A DNA stretch of 29,840 bases from positions 1-29,840 of IMG/VR virus record IMGVR_UViG_3300012940_000082, one strand, 5' to 3'. Source of the stretch: a virus. Its lineage: Duplodnaviria; Caudoviricetes. The notes beneath the pieces were generated by a model, which was not told the origin of the DNA, searched no databases, and saw only the letters and a list, made by a program, of their open reading frames with translations. Shown here piece after piece: positions 8,755 to 29,556 of the stretch; within the stretch, counting starts at the first letter, position 1; the number at the start of each line of letters is the position of its first letter. The position numbers and the translations under genes were made by a program.

Positions 8755-9219
8755 TCAGTCCCCGAGCCCCCACAGGCCGCGGCGGTTCGCCTTCGCGTCG
8801 GCCTCCAGGAGTTGGAGTTTCGCCTCCATCACGGGGTCGACCCGGAATTCGGTGTAGGCCCGGCCGTAGCCCAGCCGGACCAGCTCCTCGTTGACGCAGG
8901 TCCCGTCGGGCAGGAAGACCCAGGCCAGGCGGCGGCCGTAGCGGTCGGCGGGGCGGGAGACCGTGTCGGGGACGAGGCGGACGGGCCGGCCGGTCAAGAT
9001 TCGTTTGGTGTACGCGGACGCCTCGGGCCCGTACGGCTGGACGCCCTTGGTGGGATGGACGGTTTCGGGGGTGTCCACGCCGAGCAGGCGCACGGACACC
9101 CGCCTCCCGTCCTCCTCCACCACGATGGTGTCGCCGTCCACGACGCGGACGCACTCGACCTCCGGCGGGAGGGCCGGGGGGCGCAAGAGGGCCGCGACGA
9201 TCACCGCTCCGAACATCAT
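8755..9219 (-). CDS. Thermonuclease (SNase-like) family protein (154 aa)
   Basis: VRVVDGDTI, VRLLGVDTPE, PYGPEAS, DRYGRRLAWV, VNEELVRLG, RRGLWG; short hydrophobic N-terminus; ATGA-coupled start at 9219. Confidence 0.92.
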   Translation of the reverse strand: MMFGAVIVAALLRPPALPPEVECVRVVDGDTIVVEEDGRRVSVRLLGVDTPETVHPTKGVQPYGPEASAYTKRILTGRPVRLVPDTVSRPADRYGRRLAWVFLPDGTCVNEELVRLGYGRAYTEFRVDPVMEAKLQLLEADAKANRRGLWGLGD

Positions 9220-15166: not shown

Positions 15167-15613
15167 ATGCGCGACGCGGGACAGTGGCTCGCCCTGATCG
15201 CGGCCATACTCTTCTTCTTCGCCTTCGCCGGCGCGTACATCGCCCAGGCCAAGGGACGCCCCGCGTTCGAGGGCGTCGTCTTCGGCTTCCTGCTCGGGCC
15301 CATCGGCCTGCTGATGACGGTCCTGATGCCGACGATCAAGCCGGCCGCCGGCGCCGGCCCGTCGCCTCAGCCGAACGGGTCGAAGGCCCTCGCCGCGAAG
15401 CCCAAGGAGGACGAGCGTCCCCGTTCGATGCGGCGGATCGGCGGGCCCGGCGACGACAAGGCCATGGACTTCGTGATGGAGATGATCAGGCAGACCGAGC
15501 CACAACCCGAACCTGATCCGACATCCAGGCAATTGCCGCGCGTCGTGCCTTCTCGCGGCCTTCGGGCCGAACCCCGCGAAGGTCGCGGACCGGAAGGCGA
15601 CCCGCGCCCCTGA
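15167..15613 (+). CDS. Antisense-oriented membrane protein (148 aa), moron-like
   Basis: Start re-called to ATG 15167; two hydrophobic helices around IAQAKGR...GFLLGPIGLL; fills the 333-bp gap in the minus-strand operon. Confidence 0.8.
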   Translation: MRDAGQWLALIAAILFFFAFAGAYIAQAKGRPAFEGVVFGFLLGPIGLLMTVLMPTIKPAAGAGPSPQPNGSKALAAKPKEDERPRSMRRIGGPGDDKAMDFVMEMIRQTEPQPEPDPTSRQLPRVVPSRGLRAEPREGRGPEGDPRP

Positions 15614-24236: not shown

Positions 24237-25725
24237 GGATCGCTTCCTCCCGGAACGATTGCGTAAAGGCGTCGGCGAAGTCCGGCGACCGGCCCAGCCG
24301 CTCCATGAAGTCGGCCTTGTCCTCGAGGCAGTAGCGGTCGCCCTTGAGCTGGCCCCGGAGCTCGCGCAGCTCGTCGAGGATCGCGTCCAGCTCCGGGTGG
24401 CTGGGGATGTGGAACGGCCGGTCGTTGGGCTTGCCGTCGATGTAGGAGTCGGGGTCGAGCCGGCGGGCGAACGCGGCGGCCGTCGCCGACCGCATGTTGC
24501 CGAACCGCTTGCCGAGGTTGCGGCCGCCGAAGTAGGGGACGGCCCCCACGACGTGCTTGGCCGGCAGGGCGTTCTTCATCTTGGCCCCGGTGGTCCCCGC
24601 CGCGTCGTAGCTCACGTCGCACGCCTCGACGGACCACTTGTGCATCAGCTCGGCGATCACGCCGGCCGTCTCGTGGGCCCCGCCGAAGGCGTCGGCCCGG
24701 ACCTCCAGGATGCCCACGTCGTCCCGCACGACCACGACGCTCCGGGCGTTGCCGACGCCCTCGCCCACGTCGCAGGCGATGCGCCGCCTGCCGGCCTTCC
24801 TCGCCTTGCGCCAGGCGGCGGCGGAGGCCTCGGCCGCCGAGCTGATCGCCAGTTCCAGCCACTCGGGCTGGATCAGGATCTCCGACGAGAGCTTGGGGCG
24901 GATCGCGAGGACGTGGGCCTTGAACCACAGGGAGGCGCGGCCCCACTTGCGGGCCATCGCCTCGATCCAGGTCTTGTCGGCGAGCCCGACCGGCGACTTC
25001 TCCAGGCCGGCGTGCGGGCTGTCGGTGCTGGGGGTGTTGATGTACTTCACGGCCTGGGAGGCGGGGACGCCGTTGCGTTCGTCGGCCTCGCCGCGGAGGC
25101 ACAGGTTGACGAACCCGCCGACGGGCCGGATCGGGTTGCCGTAGCCGACCAGCTTGGTGTACTTCAGGCCGTCGAGGGCGTCCCAGACGTGGTCCTCCAC
25201 GCCCGACGCCTCGCCGACGAGCACGAGCAGGTTCTCGGCGTGCTGGCCCGACATGCGTTCGATCGTGGTGGTCGAGAACCCCAACGCCTGCCACCCCGGC
25301 TTGACTTCGAGCACCTGGGGGCTCGCCTTGATCCCTCCCGTCAGCCGCGCGGGGAGGAGTCCGGCCTTGACGAACGGGCAGCCCTCGATGGACCGCCGCA
25401 GCTCCTTCCAGGTCACCGAGCCGAGCAGGGTCTGCGACGGGCCGGTGACGACGACGAGCGAGTGGGGCCGCGTGTAGAGCCACCAGGGGACGATGCAGCC
25501 GCCGAAGAACCAGTCCTTGCCGAGGGCGTTGCCGGTCTCGATGGCGACCGTGTAGTGGTCGACGAGGGCCTTGGCCCAACGCTTCTGGATCTCGTGGCAG
25601 GGCGACCGGCAGAGCACCTTGTCATTGAAGAGGATCGGGTCGTTCCGGCACCGGACCAGGAGCCTCGCCAGCCTCTCGCTCGGCGTCCCTGAGGCGGTCT
25701 TCGATGTCGTCGTTGCTGGGGGCAT
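24229..25725 (-). CDS. terL: Terminase large subunit (about 498 aa)
   Basis: VAIETGNALGKDW (Walker A), LLVLVGEASG (Walker B position), GYGNP (motif III), IACDVGEG, SYDAAG, SPDFADA (RNase H-like nuclease); exact start uncertain. Confidence 0.9.
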   Translation of the reverse strand: MPPATTTSKTASGTPSERLARLLVRCRNDPILFNDKVLCRSPCHEIQKRWAKALVDHYTVAIETGNALGKDWFFGGCIVPWWLYTRPHSLVVVTGPSQTLLGSVTWKELRRSIEGCPFVKAGLLPARLTGGIKASPQVLEVKPGWQALGFSTTTIERMSGQHAENLLVLVGEASGVEDHVWDALDGLKYTKLVGYGNPIRPVGGFVNLCLRGEADERNGVPASQAVKYINTPSTDSPHAGLEKSPVGLADKTWIEAMARKWGRASLWFKAHVLAIRPKLSSEILIQPEWLELAISSAAEASAAAWRKARKAGRRRIACDVGEGVGNARSVVVVRDDVGILEVRADAFGGAHETAGVIAELMHKWSVEACDVSYDAAGTTGAKMKNALPAKHVVGAVPYFGGRNLGKRFGNMRSATAAAFARRLDPDSYIDGKPNDRPFHIPSHPELDAILDELRELRGQLKGDRYCLEDKADFMERLGRSPDFADAFTQSFREEAILG

Positions 25726-26119
25726 CGGGCTGCTTGTCCCGCCATTGGTCCGGGCGCCGGTTCTTGAGCCAGAAGATGCAGGCGGTGGTGTCGGGCGGGT
25801 AGTGCTGGACGTATTCGCCCTGGACGATCTGGCCTTCGTAGTTGAAGAGCTTCACCGCGTCGTGCGAGTAGCCCAAGGCCCGCCGGTAGAGCCGGTCGGC
25901 CACCTCGGCGTCGGCGAGGATCTTGCCGCTTTTTAGGGACTTACAAAACTCGGGATGGGCCTTCTTCCAACGGTTGATCGTGAGCTCGCTGACCTCGAAG
26001 AAGTCGGCCAAATCCTTGTCGGTCGCGCCGAGCCGGCAGAGCTTTGCGGCCTGCTCCGCCATCTCGGGGCGGTACTTCGACGGGGCCCCGCCGGGCTTCT
26101 TCGGGGCTTGTTTGGCCAT
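25622..26119 (-). CDS. terS: Terminase small subunit (165 aa)
   Basis: GAPSKY...LGATDKDLADFFEVSELTINRWKKAHPEF...LYRRALGY...YPPDTTACIFWLKNRRPDQWRDK. Confidence 0.9.
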   Translation of the reverse strand: MAKQAPKKPGGAPSKYRPEMAEQAAKLCRLGATDKDLADFFEVSELTINRWKKAHPEFCKSLKSGKILADAEVADRLYRRALGYSHDAVKLFNYEGQIVQGEYVQHYPPDTTACIFWLKNRRPDQWRDKQPDAPSNDDIEDRLRDAEREAGEAPGPVPERPDPLQ

Positions 26120-26150: not shown

Positions 26151-26810
26151 TCACGAGGGGAGCTTGGACGGGTCCGTGGGGATGTCGTCGCCGCTGAGGG
26201 TGTTGACGTTGTGCTCGATGGCCTCGACCTTGGCGGCCGTCTGCTTGACGACCTTGACGACCTTCTCCTGCTTGGCCTCGGCCCGGTCCTGCTTGTGCTT
26301 GTACTCGTCGAGGCTGGCCGTGAGGCTGGAAACAGTGGCCTCCATCTGGAGCAGCCGGCCGATCATCGCTCGGTTCTCAGTGCGGAGCTTGTCGACCTCG
26401 GTCTTGAGCTCCCGATTCTCGGCCTCGACCACTTCCAGCCTCGCCTCTGCCTTATTCCGGAGCTTAAGCTCCGCTTTGTAGTCGCCCCCCCAGGTCTGAT
26501 ACTCCCGGGTGTCCTCTAGGATCTTGGCGGCGGCGTCATCCGACCGATTCTTTCGGCGGGCCGCAGCCGCCATGAGGTAGAGCTGCACGCCGAAGGCGGC
26601 GAAGGCGAAGGCGGTCCCGGTCCACGCGACGTTGGAGCCGCCGAGCTGGCCCACGACGTCGCCAGCCTTGTCGCCGGCGGCGTCGGCGGTCTGGGCCACG
26701 CTCCCGGCAAGCGAGGCCAGCGCGCTGACTCCACCGGCCGCCACGGGGTATTGGATCAAACGGTTGGGCATATCCGCCTCGGCGGCCGAGGTCATCAGGT
26801 CGGTGGCCAT
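26151..26810 (-). CDS. Membrane-anchored coiled-coil protein, candidate lysis component (219 aa)
   Basis: TM segment AWTGTAFAFAAFGVQLYLMAAAA then RRKNR and long heptad-rich region; GGAGG RBS. Confidence 0.7.
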   Translation of the reverse strand: MATDLMTSAAEADMPNRLIQYPVAAGGVSALASLAGSVAQTADAAGDKAGDVVGQLGGSNVAWTGTAFAFAAFGVQLYLMAAAARRKNRSDDAAAKILEDTREYQTWGGDYKAELKLRNKAEARLEVVEAENRELKTEVDKLRTENRAMIGRLLQMEATVSSLTASLDEYKHKQDRAEAKQEKVVKVVKQTAAKVEAIEHNVNTLSGDDIPTDPSKLPS

Positions 26811-26871
26811 CGGGCTGCGTCGCCCTCCACGGTTGCGGCCCCGCGTCGGGCCTGGGATGCGGGGGCGGCGA

Positions 26872-27279
26872 TCAGGCCTTGGGCTTGCCGATGATCAGCG
26901 GCAGGAGCTTGACCAGCAGGTTGCCGAGGGCGATCACGATGGGCAGCACCTGGCCCGAGTCCACCTCGCCGTAGGTCGCGCCGAGCGTCGGCTTGGCGGC
27001 GAGGGAGTCCAGCGAGTCGGCGACTTCGTCGAAACTGCCGAAGTCGCTCGGGATCGCGACCGCGACCCCCATGCCGTCGACCTGGACGATCTCGACAGTG
27101 GATGGGGTGACCATGGAGGCCACGCCGACCACCGGCTTGCCGGAGCCGAGCGCCAGGCCCATGCCGTAGCCGATGACGTCGTAGGCGGCCTCCGCGAAGG
27201 CGACGTCGTACGTCGAGGTGCGGATGGCCTTGGTCACGACGGCCACCGCGTCGACCGGAAACTCTTTCGGGAAGGGCAT
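26872..27279 (-). CDS. Hypothetical protein with C-terminal hydrophobic helix (135 aa)
   Basis: Start re-called to ATG 27279 after AAGGA; ends VLPIVIALGNLLVKLLPLIIGKPKA. Confidence 0.75.
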   Translation of the reverse strand: MPFPKEFPVDAVAVVTKAIRTSTYDVAFAEAAYDVIGYGMGLALGSGKPVVGVASMVTPSTVEIVQVDGMGVAVAIPSDFGSFDEVADSLDSLAAKPTLGATYGEVDSGQVLPIVIALGNLLVKLLPLIIGKPKA

Positions 27280-27293
27280 CGGATCGGGTCCTT

Positions 27294-28100
27294 TCAGCGG
27301 GCCGGCGGGGCCGCGTCCTGGGGGTCTTCGTTGACGGCTCGGATGGAGTAGGCCTCGAACCACGAGGTCTTCTCGATGTGCCCACGGCGGAGCCAGCAGA
27401 AGCCGTTCAGGCCCCACCGCGTCCCCCACGAGTTGAGCATCCGCACGGCCCACTCGCCGTTGGCGAGCTTCTTGAGGCCGCCGCCGACCATAACCGCGTG
27501 GTTGCAGGGCCCGAACGCGGGCTCGGGCGGGCAGCCGTCGGCGTCGAGGTTGCCGCTCGACCAGCCGGCGGTGGCGCGGACCGCGAGGTTCAGGGCCCGC
27601 CGCTTGGCGACCTCGGAACAGATGGCGTCGAAGTCCTGGCCGACGGCGGATCCGATCTCGATGCGGAACCGCTTGGAGGCGGCCGAGGCCTCGTCCGAGT
27701 ACCGGCCGGAGAAGTCGCCGTATTTGACCGTCGACTCGGGCGCGACGCCCTGTCGGCAGAGGAGCAGGGCGTCCATGATGTTGGACCCGCGATCCCACCC
27801 CTTCACCAGCGAGCCGTAGACCCACCAGGCCGAGAGCGGCACGTAGCCGAGGCCCTGGATCGCCCGCGAGAACTCGGCCGAGGAGGCGGCGGCGTGGCCG
27901 TTGCACGCCCCGCGGCCATCCTGGTCCTTCGTGCCCACCTCTTCCGGCCACGCGTCGAACGCCTGGAGCTTGGAGCGGGGGATGACGTCCCCGACCGGGC
28001 CGGCGAACATCCGCACCTTGCCCTCGTCGGAGGGCGTCAGGTTGAGGATCCGCTTGTGGCCGTCGGGCGTGATGATCGACTCGAATTCGCCGGTGCTCAC
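27294..28100 (-). CDS. Papain-like cysteine peptidase, family C1 (268 aa)
   Basis: Start re-called to GTG 28100 (GTGA overlap); KDQDGRGACNGHA (Gln, Cys), NHAVMVGG (His), MLNSWGTRWGLNGF (Asn). Confidence 0.92.
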   Translation of the reverse strand: MSTGEFESIITPDGHKRILNLTPSDEGKVRMFAGPVGDVIPRSKLQAFDAWPEEVGTKDQDGRGACNGHAAASSAEFSRAIQGLGYVPLSAWWVYGSLVKGWDRGSNIMDALLLCRQGVAPESTVKYGDFSGRYSDEASAASKRFRIEIGSAVGQDFDAICSEVAKRRALNLAVRATAGWSSGNLDADGCPPEPAFGPCNHAVMVGGGLKKLANGEWAVRMLNSWGTRWGLNGFCWLRRGHIEKTSWFEAYSIRAVNEDPQDAAPPAR

Positions 28101-28666
28101 TTGGCGGCCCCCCTGAGCGCGCGGACCGCGGCGACCACGCTGTCCTTGTCCTGGACCTTGGGCAGCACCTTGATCACGGCGGCGGTCTTCTCGCCGGCCT
28201 TCTGCTCCTGCACCACGATGCACGGCAGTTCGCCGAGCTTATCGCGGATCTGCAGCCGGTCGATCACGTCCTGGTTGTCGTCGTAGGCCCGGGTCGTCGC
28301 CCCCAGCCCGATCAGCTCGGCCGAGTCCGTCAGGCTGCTCTTCACGCGGGCCTGATCCTGGGTCTCCGTCGCCTCGTCGAAGACGTAGGTGAGCCAGAGC
28401 TTGCCCGTGGCGACGGGGGCCGGCGGGGGAGTCGGAGGCTGCGGGTCGGGCGTGGGGGTGGGCGTCGGCCCAGGGCCGGGCTCCGGCGCGGGGTCGTTCG
28501 CCCAGGTGATCCGGATCCACCCGTCCCCGTACTCGACCTTCGTGGCCCCGGGGGTCTGCACCGTGTACGACCCGGCCGGCCCGACGATGATCGGCGGCGT
28601 CTGCGCCCCCGCGCTCGACGCGAGGAGCAGCGCGGCGAGCGGGGCGAGGATGAGGCGTGTCAGCAT
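28097..28666 (-). CDS. Secreted protein: signal peptide, Pro-rich linker, thioredoxin-like C-terminal domain without CxxC (189 aa)
   Basis: Start re-called to ATG 28666; MLTRLILAPLAALLLASSAGA|Q signal; PAPEPGPGPTPTPTPDPQPPTPPPAP linker; KLWLTYVFDE and ELPCIVVQ (cis-Pro-like). Fold call is tentative. Confidence 0.7.
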   Translation of the reverse strand: MLTRLILAPLAALLLASSAGAQTPPIIVGPAGSYTVQTPGATKVEYGDGWIRITWANDPAPEPGPGPTPTPTPDPQPPTPPPAPVATGKLWLTYVFDEATETQDQARVKSSLTDSAELIGLGATTRAYDDNQDVIDRLQIRDKLGELPCIVVQEQKAGEKTAAVIKVLPKVQDKDSVVAAVRALRGAAK

Positions 28667-28712
28667 GGGTAGGTTACGCCTGAGGCTGGTGGGCAAGGCC
28701 TGTTTCGAAACG

Positions 28713-28745
28713 CCCACGCCCCCGGGTGTGATCCGAGGGCGTGGG
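28713..28745 (-). terminator. 13-bp hairpin, possible weak terminator before the peptidase cassette
   Basis: Minus strand CCCACGCCCTCGG-atcacac-CCGGGGGCGTGGG (one G.U), followed by CGTTTC. Confidence 0.5.
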
Positions 28746-28774
28746 GTGTGCGATGCGGCGGGGATCGGGTTGTG

Positions 28775-28888
28775 TCAGGTCGGCCCGGCGAACAGGGCCA
28801 CCAGCAGGTACGCGGCGACGATCAGGGCGTAGACGGCGATGATGGAGACGAACTCCTGGGCGTTCAGCTCGTCGCCCTGATCGTCCAT
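28775..28888 (-). CDS. Single-TM micropeptide (37 aa)
   Basis: Not in ORF track; MDDQGDELNAQEFVSIIAVYALIVAAYLLVALFAGPT; GGAGAGGGGG RBS; nearly all GC-ending codons. Confidence 0.7.
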   Translation of the reverse strand: MDDQGDELNAQEFVSIIAVYALIVAAYLLVALFAGPT

Positions 28889-29143: not shown

Positions 29144-29500
29144 TCACACCCCGCCCCGGAGTCCGGGGGAGGGCTTGTATTTCTTCCGATCCTTCGGCAG
29201 GGGCTTGGCCCGCATCTTCGGGTGGTCGTCGAATCCCGAGACGTAGCAGGTCAGGCACACGGTCGCTTCCCCCACCTGGATCGGGTCGTGTTCGCAGCGA
29301 GAGTGGTCGAGCCGCAGGGCGAACTCGTTCGGGCTCGGGATCCGCCCGGCCCCCGTCTCGGCGTCGTACGCCTCGGCGATCCACCGGTAGGCCGTCGACG
29401 CCGCCACGTCGAACTCCCGGCAGATGTCGGCCACCGGGACCGCGCTCCGCTCCAGGGCGATCACCAGGCGTCGAAGGTCTCGGCGGCTGAGCGTCGGCAC
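29144..29500 (-). CDS. HTH DNA-binding protein with C-terminal Cys/His zinc-site candidate (118 aa)
   Basis: VPVADICREFDVAASTAYRWI HTH; CEH...VCLTC; GTG start after GGAG, just downstream of promoter. Confidence 0.75.
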   Translation of the reverse strand: MPTLSRRDLRRLVIALERSAVPVADICREFDVAASTAYRWIAEAYDAETGAGRIPSPNEFALRLDHSRCEHDPIQVGEATVCLTCYVSGFDDHPKMRAKPLPKDRKKYKPSPGLRGGV

Positions 29501-29509
29501 TGGGCGTAC

Positions 29510-29544
29510 TCCGGGCGGGATAATGGGAGTTTATCCCGCCCGGA
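29510..29544. repeat. Perfect 14-bp inverted repeat around the -10 element (operator or cruciform)
   Basis: TCCGGGCGGGATAA-tgggagt-TTATCCCGCCCGGA. Confidence 0.85.
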
Positions 29545-29556
29545 ACTAGATGTCAA
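29528..29556 (-). promoter_or_regulatory. Near-consensus sigma70 promoter facing the late operon
   Basis: Minus strand TTGACA (29556-29551), 17-nt spacer, TAAACT (29533-29528), AT-rich upstream DNA in a high-GC genome. Confidence 0.8.

Follow-up and report, generated by a model that had tools for sequence, protein, structure and literature searches.

A conserved C1A peptidase and thioredoxin-fold partner gene pair at the lysis position of probable planctomycete phages, a candidate protease-based replacement of the endolysin

In lambda-type lysis (S-R-Rz/Rz1), a soluble, signal-less hydrolase is encoded in a slot of the late operon and flanked by small membrane proteins, and variants with a signal-anchored hydrolase exist (signal-arrest-release, SAR, endolysins). 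The slots before the terminase small subunit gene (terS) and after the tail fibres are the two usual lysis positions. We know of no tailed-phage endolysin that cuts anything other than peptidoglycan or pseudomurein. The locus described here was found in the IMG/VR record IMGVR_UViG_3300012940_000082 (Caudoviricetes), which was analysed over its entire 29,840 bp (the window; GC 70%). Its core is a gene pair for a C1A papain-type cysteine peptidase and a predicted exported partner with a thioredoxin fold, and we propose, at a probability of about 0.6, that this conserved core pair replaces the endolysin in a protease-based lysis of a protein wall. The module resembles holin-endolysin lysis but, as read from its sequences, fails on the defining component, a muralytic enzyme: the hydrolase is a C1A protease, to which an exported partner of thioredoxin fold obligatorily belongs; no match to a holin or spanin family was obtained and the window cassette has no lipoprotein o-spanin.

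A papain-like fold with Cys and His is also used for opening the host wall by the CHAP/NlpC-P60 amidases and by PeiW/PeiP (C71), as described in the available portion of PMC10318531. The substrate there is glycan-peptide, whereas here it is likely protein; the present enzyme is of the C1A type, with a Gln oxyanion hole and an Asn triad residue, has a partner and carries no wall-binding domain. Xylellain of Xylella fastidiosa (3OIS), the best solved match, is likewise a single domain with a short N-terminal extension. Identity is about 20%, however, and xylellain-like host genes form the outgroup of the tree and have neither the partner nor a phage context. A further likeness is to protease-inhibitor operons, in which the gene of a papain-type protease sits on a mobile element in tight coupling with that of a small partner; staphopain-staphostatin is one such pair. 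The Bacteroides C10 proteases are another, according to the part of PMC2873492 that was accessible. In contrast to those systems, it is here the partner and not the protease that carries the export signal; the partner also adopts a thioredoxin fold and can be joined by fusion to the N-terminus of the peptidase. No C1-protease or thioredoxin-partner lysis module in planctomycete phages was found by full-text literature searches, which were judged from their listings and did not extend to subscription journals.

The peptidase and its exported partner

Scans with the peptidase alignment returned 80 viral and 42 metagenome loci, one of which is the window itself and many of which are near-identical freshwater phages. 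The partner lies upstream in 110 of the 118 loci with a called peptidase (98 adjacent, 12 one or two genes off) and is uncalled in the other eight, mostly near a contig end. Partner and peptidase overlap by -4 in 82 of the 93 loci scored, and the GTGA overlap of partner stop and peptidase start reported in the preliminary description is present in the window at 28100-28097. All 22 IMG/VR records chosen by peptidase contain the partner. When contigs were chosen by capsid protein instead, a set drawn largely from one close population, the pair was found in 19/19 with at least 3.5 kb of upstream sequence and in 25/26 with 2.5 kb. A small amphipathic-helix gene (family c31 or two other families) was found near the peptidase in 80/85 loci with enough flank, and the remaining neighbours of the pair are variable small transmembrane (TM) proteins. 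Partner and peptidase are therefore the constant part of the five-gene cassette first described and the amphipathic-helix gene is near-constant, but the cassette as a unit is not conserved. The pair accompanies HK97-, P22- and other head types. It occupies a lysis position of the late operon before terS in the window, the phage G001 and the prophages of genomes G023 and G520, and stands last after the tail fibres in the G517 prophage.

Median ratios of nonsynonymous to synonymous substitution among the freshwater relatives were 0.09 for the peptidase (253 pairs) and 0.13 for the partner (326 pairs), which indicates that both genes are under purifying selection. The collection of cultured and deposited phages yielded only one unannotated uncultured record (28%), and no viral relative of the window terminase was found. 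Pattern scans of genome contigs with the peptidase alignment and with the capsid protein returned nothing, whereas a hidden Markov model (HMM) search did find matches; the partner alignment is nowhere conserved enough to be used in this way.

The peptidase matches PF00112 (E 5.7e-7, above the Pfam cut-off), its sole match at E<=1. Residues Q60, C66, H201 and N223 are invariant across 49 aligned homologues, with Gln-x5-Cys, His and Asn-Ser-Trp motifs in that order, and the catalytic motifs are retained in 107 of 109 called peptidases. A papain fold was predicted by AlphaFold2 (AF2; predicted local distance difference test, pLDDT, 93), all Foldseek matches listed are papain-family proteases, and xylellain is the closest PDB structure by both sequence profile (E 5.7e-14) and fold (E 1.7e-13). 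The sequence has no N-terminal hydrophobic segment or signal peptide. The enzyme had been described from the window as a C1 peptidase with intact Gln/Cys/His/Asn residues and without signal peptide, and the PF00112 match and the invariant residues agree with this. No CHAP, NlpC-P60 or C71 profile and no wall-binding domain was detected on it (Pfam), and its PDB matches are all C1A.

The family is large, with 367 clusters (50% identity) scoring below 1e-30, and in its Atlas clusters 80-98% of the members are viral. Of the 150 best representatives, 10 have intein-like inserts, placed at the catalytic Cys or His. The carriers noted were P0021, P0035, P0036, P0090, P0096, P0102, P0109, P0114 and P0128 (at the catalytic Cys), P0160 (at His) and P0203 (both); P0230, one of 11 regular-expression matches, was dropped as it has a Cys-rich tail instead. 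The inserts break the active-site motifs, and the enzyme is therefore presumably inactive before splicing; the inteins could serve as a timer or redox switch. Inteins tend to sit in essential enzymes, and their presence is thus consistent with an essential peptidase. A xylellain-like C1 peptidase without thioredoxin partner was also seen after the capsid gene of a Mu-like phage (59% GC; L001:3232-4937), between a small TM gene and a lipoprotein-like gene, and is possibly an independent recruitment.

The C-domain of the partner was modelled as a thioredoxin fold (AF2, C-domain pLDDT about 95). Its top Foldseek matches are thioredoxins (E 7e-4, probability 1.0, template modelling score by target about 0.5-0.7), and the Atlas structure rows concur. 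The signal peptide was called by eye. A CxxC motif was found in 0/87 family members, and 53 members have no Cys at all; the partner is therefore not a standard disulfide reductase, and that role was rejected. The secreted thioredoxin-like partner of the preliminary description is borne out as regards the fold. A redox-active version of the pairing was noted in the prophage of another planctomycete (G380; L177:7342-9273), where, ahead of the terminase, a thioredoxin gene with a signal peptide and an intact WCGPC motif comes after a distant C1-like gene, together with an amphipathic-helix gene.

Seven of the 150 best distant relatives of the peptidase are fusions, in which a Sec signal, lipobox or TM anchor is followed by a Pro linker, a domain and the peptidase. 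The profile of the partner thioredoxin domain matched five of these at E 7e-7 to 5e-3 and one at 0.08, and missed one; the best E in shuffled controls was 2.8. One TM-anchored fusion (L271; thioredoxin match weak, E 0.04) lies within a phage late operon among small TM genes, and no viral relative was found for the fusion P0196. Judged from their export signals, the fusions place the peptidase family outside the cytoplasm, and by extension the unfused form would act there as well. In the fusions the partner occupies the place of a papain propeptide and may therefore restrain rather than aim the enzyme; its role could be that of a substrate-targeting adaptor or of a propeptide-like restraint.

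Hosts, wall composition and lysis enzymes

The window integrase shares 41% identity with an integrase of Paludisphaera soli JC670 (G023). The prophage of that strain (G023:C114, from about 85.4 kb) has the order partner, peptidase, amphipathic-helix gene, TM-coil gene and terS. The host is thus, from sequence relationships, likely an Isosphaeraceae planctomycete. The close peptidase family was found in 6/121 genomes of the host family (seven matches, E below 1e-33), and the window peptidase groups with the copy of the G517 prophage in a FastTree tree. A sample of 401 genomes of the phylum gave matches in 13, mostly long chromosomal C1 proteins.

Peptidoglycan-hydrolase families were absent from all 104 six-frame window open reading frames (ORFs) of at least 100 amino acids (aa) (Pfam) and from the 40 called window ORFs (PHROGs). 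The sole 'lysis' label, phrog_2252 on 1117-1887, was discarded, the ORF being a dATP/dGTP diphosphohydrolase by better matches. The window has no terminal repeat and is therefore an incomplete genome; absence of an enzyme from it alone is accordingly weak proof, and the claim of a late operon without murein hydrolase holds with that limit. Six records with direct terminal repeats, two rated 100% complete and the closest relative G001 (56%) were fetched, and their 502 called genes were reduced to 377 representatives of at least 60 aa. Muralytic, wall-binding, holin and spanin families were found in none of these 377 representatives from the eight complete genomes and G001 (Pfam), in none of 137 unannotated ORFs of 100-400 aa (PHROGs) or 25 calling-gap ORFs (Pfam), and in none of 59 genes from two prophages, those of G023 and G517. 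GH24, GH108 and SLT are recognised by these libraries elsewhere among the prophages of the host family. Endolysin HMMs thus identified no known muralytic family in the eight complete phage genomes.

Terminase matches were obtained in 88/121 genomes of the host family, from which 39 loci were fetched (stronger matches on long contigs, not a random sample). In 12 of the 39 a protease lies upstream of terS among small TM genes. Five of these slot proteases were assigned by Pfam (two C1, two signal-bearing Trypsin_2, one M10), three by profile comparison and four by motif only; their folds are of at least three unrelated kinds (C1, Trypsin_2 with signal peptide, M10). The pairs L191/L211 and L208/L217 were counted as proteases from Cys/His motifs by eye only, and hhalign did not confirm them as relatives of the peptidase (probability 2% and 1%). 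A TM-anchored protein matching the thioredoxin profile of the partner (81%, E 1e-5) lies beside two of the four motif-only proteases. Muralytic families were found in 0/148 slot genes scanned (of 167; L195, L227 and L230 left out). Lipase_3 genes were seen upstream of terS at L207:11892-12950 and L212:11811-12893, in loci that are otherwise remnant-like.

YTV proteins are encoded in 5/5 module-bearing genomes and in 0/14 control genomes; a penicillin-binding protein (PBP) transpeptidase match was found in 1/5 of the former and a single Mur-ligase match each in 2/5, compared with 10/14 controls, the completeness of the scanned genomes not being given. Mur-ligase matches occur in 42/121 genomes of the host family, mostly one or two per genome. 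Amidase_2 is present in 114/121 and M15_4 in 8/121 and looked chromosomal in the four loci read; Amidase_2 is thus near-universal although Mur-ligase and transpeptidase matches are sparse. The accessible parts of two reports describe cysteine-rich YTV proteins as dominating cell-wall preparations and as restricted to this planctomycete group (PMC8567305, PMC12673574). In Planctopirus limnophila, mur, mraY, murJ and pbp2 are dispensable and a YTV protein belongs to the essential set, according to the available text of PMC10632474. YTV-type wall proteins are the likely target of the peptidase; peptide cross-links of peptidoglycan, named before as a possible substrate, are disfavoured by host gene content, which points to protein.

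Proposed mechanism and competing explanations

The module would be expressed late, and the partner would be exported by Sec into the periplasm. The signal-less peptidase would then pass through a membrane hole, likely formed by a small membrane protein, and peptidase and partner together would cut the cysteine-rich protein wall (likely its YTV-type proteins), so that the cell bursts. The amphipathic-helix protein may disrupt the outer membrane, for which amphipathic lysis peptides offer an analogy. An envelope protease as stand-in for the endolysin, as proposed in the preliminary description, is favoured by the conservation of the pair across unrelated head modules, the fusions behind export signals, the lack of a muralytic enzyme in complete genomes, the other proteases in the slot, and the wall genes of the hosts, which include YTV proteins and give few peptidoglycan-synthesis matches. 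Release of the enzyme by a holin, part of the same proposal, found no support, in that no holin was identified among the neighbours (Pfam, PHROGs). Holins are often unrecognisable by family.

At even odds, we extend the proposal to Planctomycetia phages at large: these would have exchanged muralytic for proteolytic lysis by recruiting several unrelated proteases (C1A papain-type, other papain-like, trypsin-like and matrixin-like) to the endolysin slot, in many cases along with a helper of thioredoxin fold, for cleavage of a disulfide-rich wall of YTV protein. If replacement of the endolysin by the pair is correct, proteolysis would be a route of exit distinct from those known for tailed phages, and these phages would report protein, not peptidoglycan, as the load-bearing wall of their hosts. 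This touches the long-debated question of whether planctomycetes are walled by protein or by peptidoglycan. An enzyme under selection to break the wall would mark the load-bearing material and would be a reagent for finding the target proteins. An experimental test is within reach, since the cassette lies in a prophage of a strain in culture, Paludisphaera soli JC670.

Several observations weigh against endolysin replacement. Because the loci are redundant, the counts given above overstate independence. The module sits among head genes in the freshwater relatives, the membrane proteins of the window cassette match no holin or spanin family (Pfam, PHROGs), and in G517 no membrane gene lies beside the pair. 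No slot protease was found in 27 of the 39 terminase loci, most of which have host or replication genes there, and L193, L196, L206 and L216 have none despite small TM genes. The fusions form a subclade sister to the group of the window (FastTree) and are therefore evidence at the level of the family only, and a weak search for longer partner homologues gave none. Most ORFs of these phages match nothing and could include an unrecognised wall hydrolase. Detection of peptidoglycan and of lysozyme-sensitive sacculi in planctomycetes is stated in the accessible portion of PMC4432640. In the genomes G505 (L183:6777-8556) and G506 (L187:8035-9731), a 63-65 aa amphipathic peptide, the partner and the peptidase form a three-gene group surrounded by host genes and nested among prophage copies in the tree, and no phage genes were seen in the 20-kb stretches around it. 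The module can therefore serve a host, and these copies possibly represent a domesticated wall-remodelling or programmed-lysis module.

Lysozymes of the classical kind also count against it: GH24 was found in 13/121 and GH108 in 2/121 genomes of the host family. The seven cases examined, all in Isosphaeraceae prophages (L251-L270; G533, G541, G515, G445, G543, G476 and G534), are without exception classical tail fibre-TM-lysozyme modules, and the notion that planctomycete prophages never carry endolysins was ruled out by them. In favour of displacement, the module and any of eleven slot-gene queries were found in 0/7 of these prophages, which alone and against the base rate of 12/39 is only suggestive; 150 of their 163 mid-sized genes, when scanned, contained S78 and ArdC as the only peptidases. 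The capsid protein of the G543 prophage is 65% identical to that of the module phage G001. The gene families of the lysozyme prophages presumably are alphaproteobacterial. Either a lysozyme-sensitive layer persists in the hosts, or these prophages reflect host jumps or stranded imports. The idea that lysozyme prophages track hosts with PBPs was discarded, as five of their hosts have no PBP transpeptidase match; wall genes therefore fail to separate the two phage types.

The phage-free copies would be explained by an envelope-remodelling or superinfection-exclusion module expressed in the lysogen, which trims surface or periplasmic proteins (e.g. phage receptors) to the benefit of the lysogen and leaves lysis to something else. 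The consensus sigma-70 promoter upstream of the operon and the integrases that mark every examined module genome as temperate also fit this explanation, which we nevertheless consider unlikely, as the pair is core rather than sporadic (19/19 capsid-selected contigs, a close population), lies within the late operon and on its strand, and is absent from the lysozyme-bearing prophages, and no other lysis candidate was found in the complete genomes. It is improbable that the enzyme is a peptidoglycan peptidase, its papain fold attacking a thin or divergent peptidoglycan at stem peptides or cross-links, in the manner of CHAP or PeiW/PeiP. Papain-fold phage lysins are known (CHAP, C71), peptidoglycan has been found in planctomycetes (PMC10318531 and PMC4432640, each in its available part), GH24 prophages live in the host family and Amidase_2 is common there. 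Sequence and fold, however, make the enzyme a C1A peptidase whose neighbours are cathepsin/papain endopeptidases, and it has neither a CHAP/NlpC match nor a wall-binding domain; trypsin-like and matrixin proteases use the same slot, and the module hosts are mostly without PBP transpeptidase or Mur-ligase matches.

A virion-related enzyme, either a capsid or tail maturation protease or a virion-borne entry protease, would suit the many freshwater relatives in which the module immediately precedes the capsid or scaffold gene, and a protein wall would need to be breached at entry too. This is quite improbable: separate prohead proteases are encoded in five module-bearing genomes (S78 in G004, G009, G011 and G517, phrog_80 in G008), and these together with the differing head types (HK97-, P22- and others) argue against a maturation role; the partner and the fusions bear export signals, and the host copies have no capsid gene. 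Capsid maturation, raised already in the preliminary description as the case that would overturn its proposal, was rejected on the same grounds. Very improbable is a cytoplasmic protease that attacks regulatory or defence proteins of the host, beside which the exported partner would be unrelated or no more than protective. The unfused peptidase indeed has no export signal and no holin was identified, but the same family is fused behind Sec, lipoprotein or TM signals and is tightly coupled (-4) to the exported partner.

Operon layout and neighbouring genes

The window is a fragment of a temperate phage, with terS, terL, portal, scaffold and capsid genes on the minus strand and an integrase gene at 3551-2334. 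The five ORFs described earlier as lying directly upstream of terS on the minus strand were all located at those places (Table 1).

Table 1. Features of the operon upstream of and including terS (window positions)
Feature	Position	Strand	Evidence
C1A papain-type cysteine peptidase, 268 aa, GTG start	27294..28100	-	PF00112, invariant residues, AF2 model
Partner, 189 aa: predicted Sec signal peptide, small beta domain, Pro-rich linker, thioredoxin-fold domain	28097..28666	-	
135-aa protein with C-terminal amphipathic/hydrophobic helix; candidate membrane-disrupting component	26872..27279	-	family c31
219-aa membrane protein with C-terminal coiled coil; holin-like candidate	26151..26810	-	
37-aa single-TM peptide, called as coding, TM 16-34	28775..28888	-	
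Helix-turn-helix (HTH) and Cys-motif protein, likely transcription regulator, operon head	29144..29500	-	HTH_23 E 3.3e-5
Sigma-70-like promoter TTGACA-17-TAAACT upstream of operon; consensus match only	29528..29556	-	1 site vs 0.3 +/- 0.5 in shuffles
Terminase small subunit, start of morphogenesis genes	25622..26119	-	phrog_309 E 2.9e-55

The 135-aa protein has no Pfam or PHROG match. Its C-terminal hydrophobic helix, as first described, is present as an amphipathic helix and is not a clean TM segment; two peptidases (P0189 and P0199) carry fused tails similar to its own. In the 219-aa protein the TM segment lies at 66-84, and matches in Pfam and PHROGs are only of the generic coiled-coil kind. 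Its homologue in the G520 prophage occupies the same slot (E 1.8e-13), and the genes in that slot of G023 and G001 show weak homology to it. Basic residues follow its TM segment, which suggests a cytoplasmic coil, unlike Rz. Inspection of the window cassette revealed no lipobox gene. None of the fetched loci holds a homologue of the 37-aa peptide, which was thereby excluded as a conserved member of the module. HTH and Cys-motif genes likewise lie upstream of the cassette in the G023 and G520 prophages.

A thermonuclease (SNase) gene (window 8755-9219, minus strand; also L180:16197-16676 and cluster c28) recurs in the late region of these phages; it has an N-terminal hydrophobic stretch in the window and in G023 and lies within a membrane-gene block in the freshwater relatives. 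A moron-like gene for a membrane protein stands on the opposite strand within the tail region of the window (15167-15613, plus strand). A CsrA-family regulator is encoded in six complete phages (L127:6593-6784, L130:3476-3673, L134:6093-6281, L136:5297-5494, L137:13855-14094 and L139:19545-19754).

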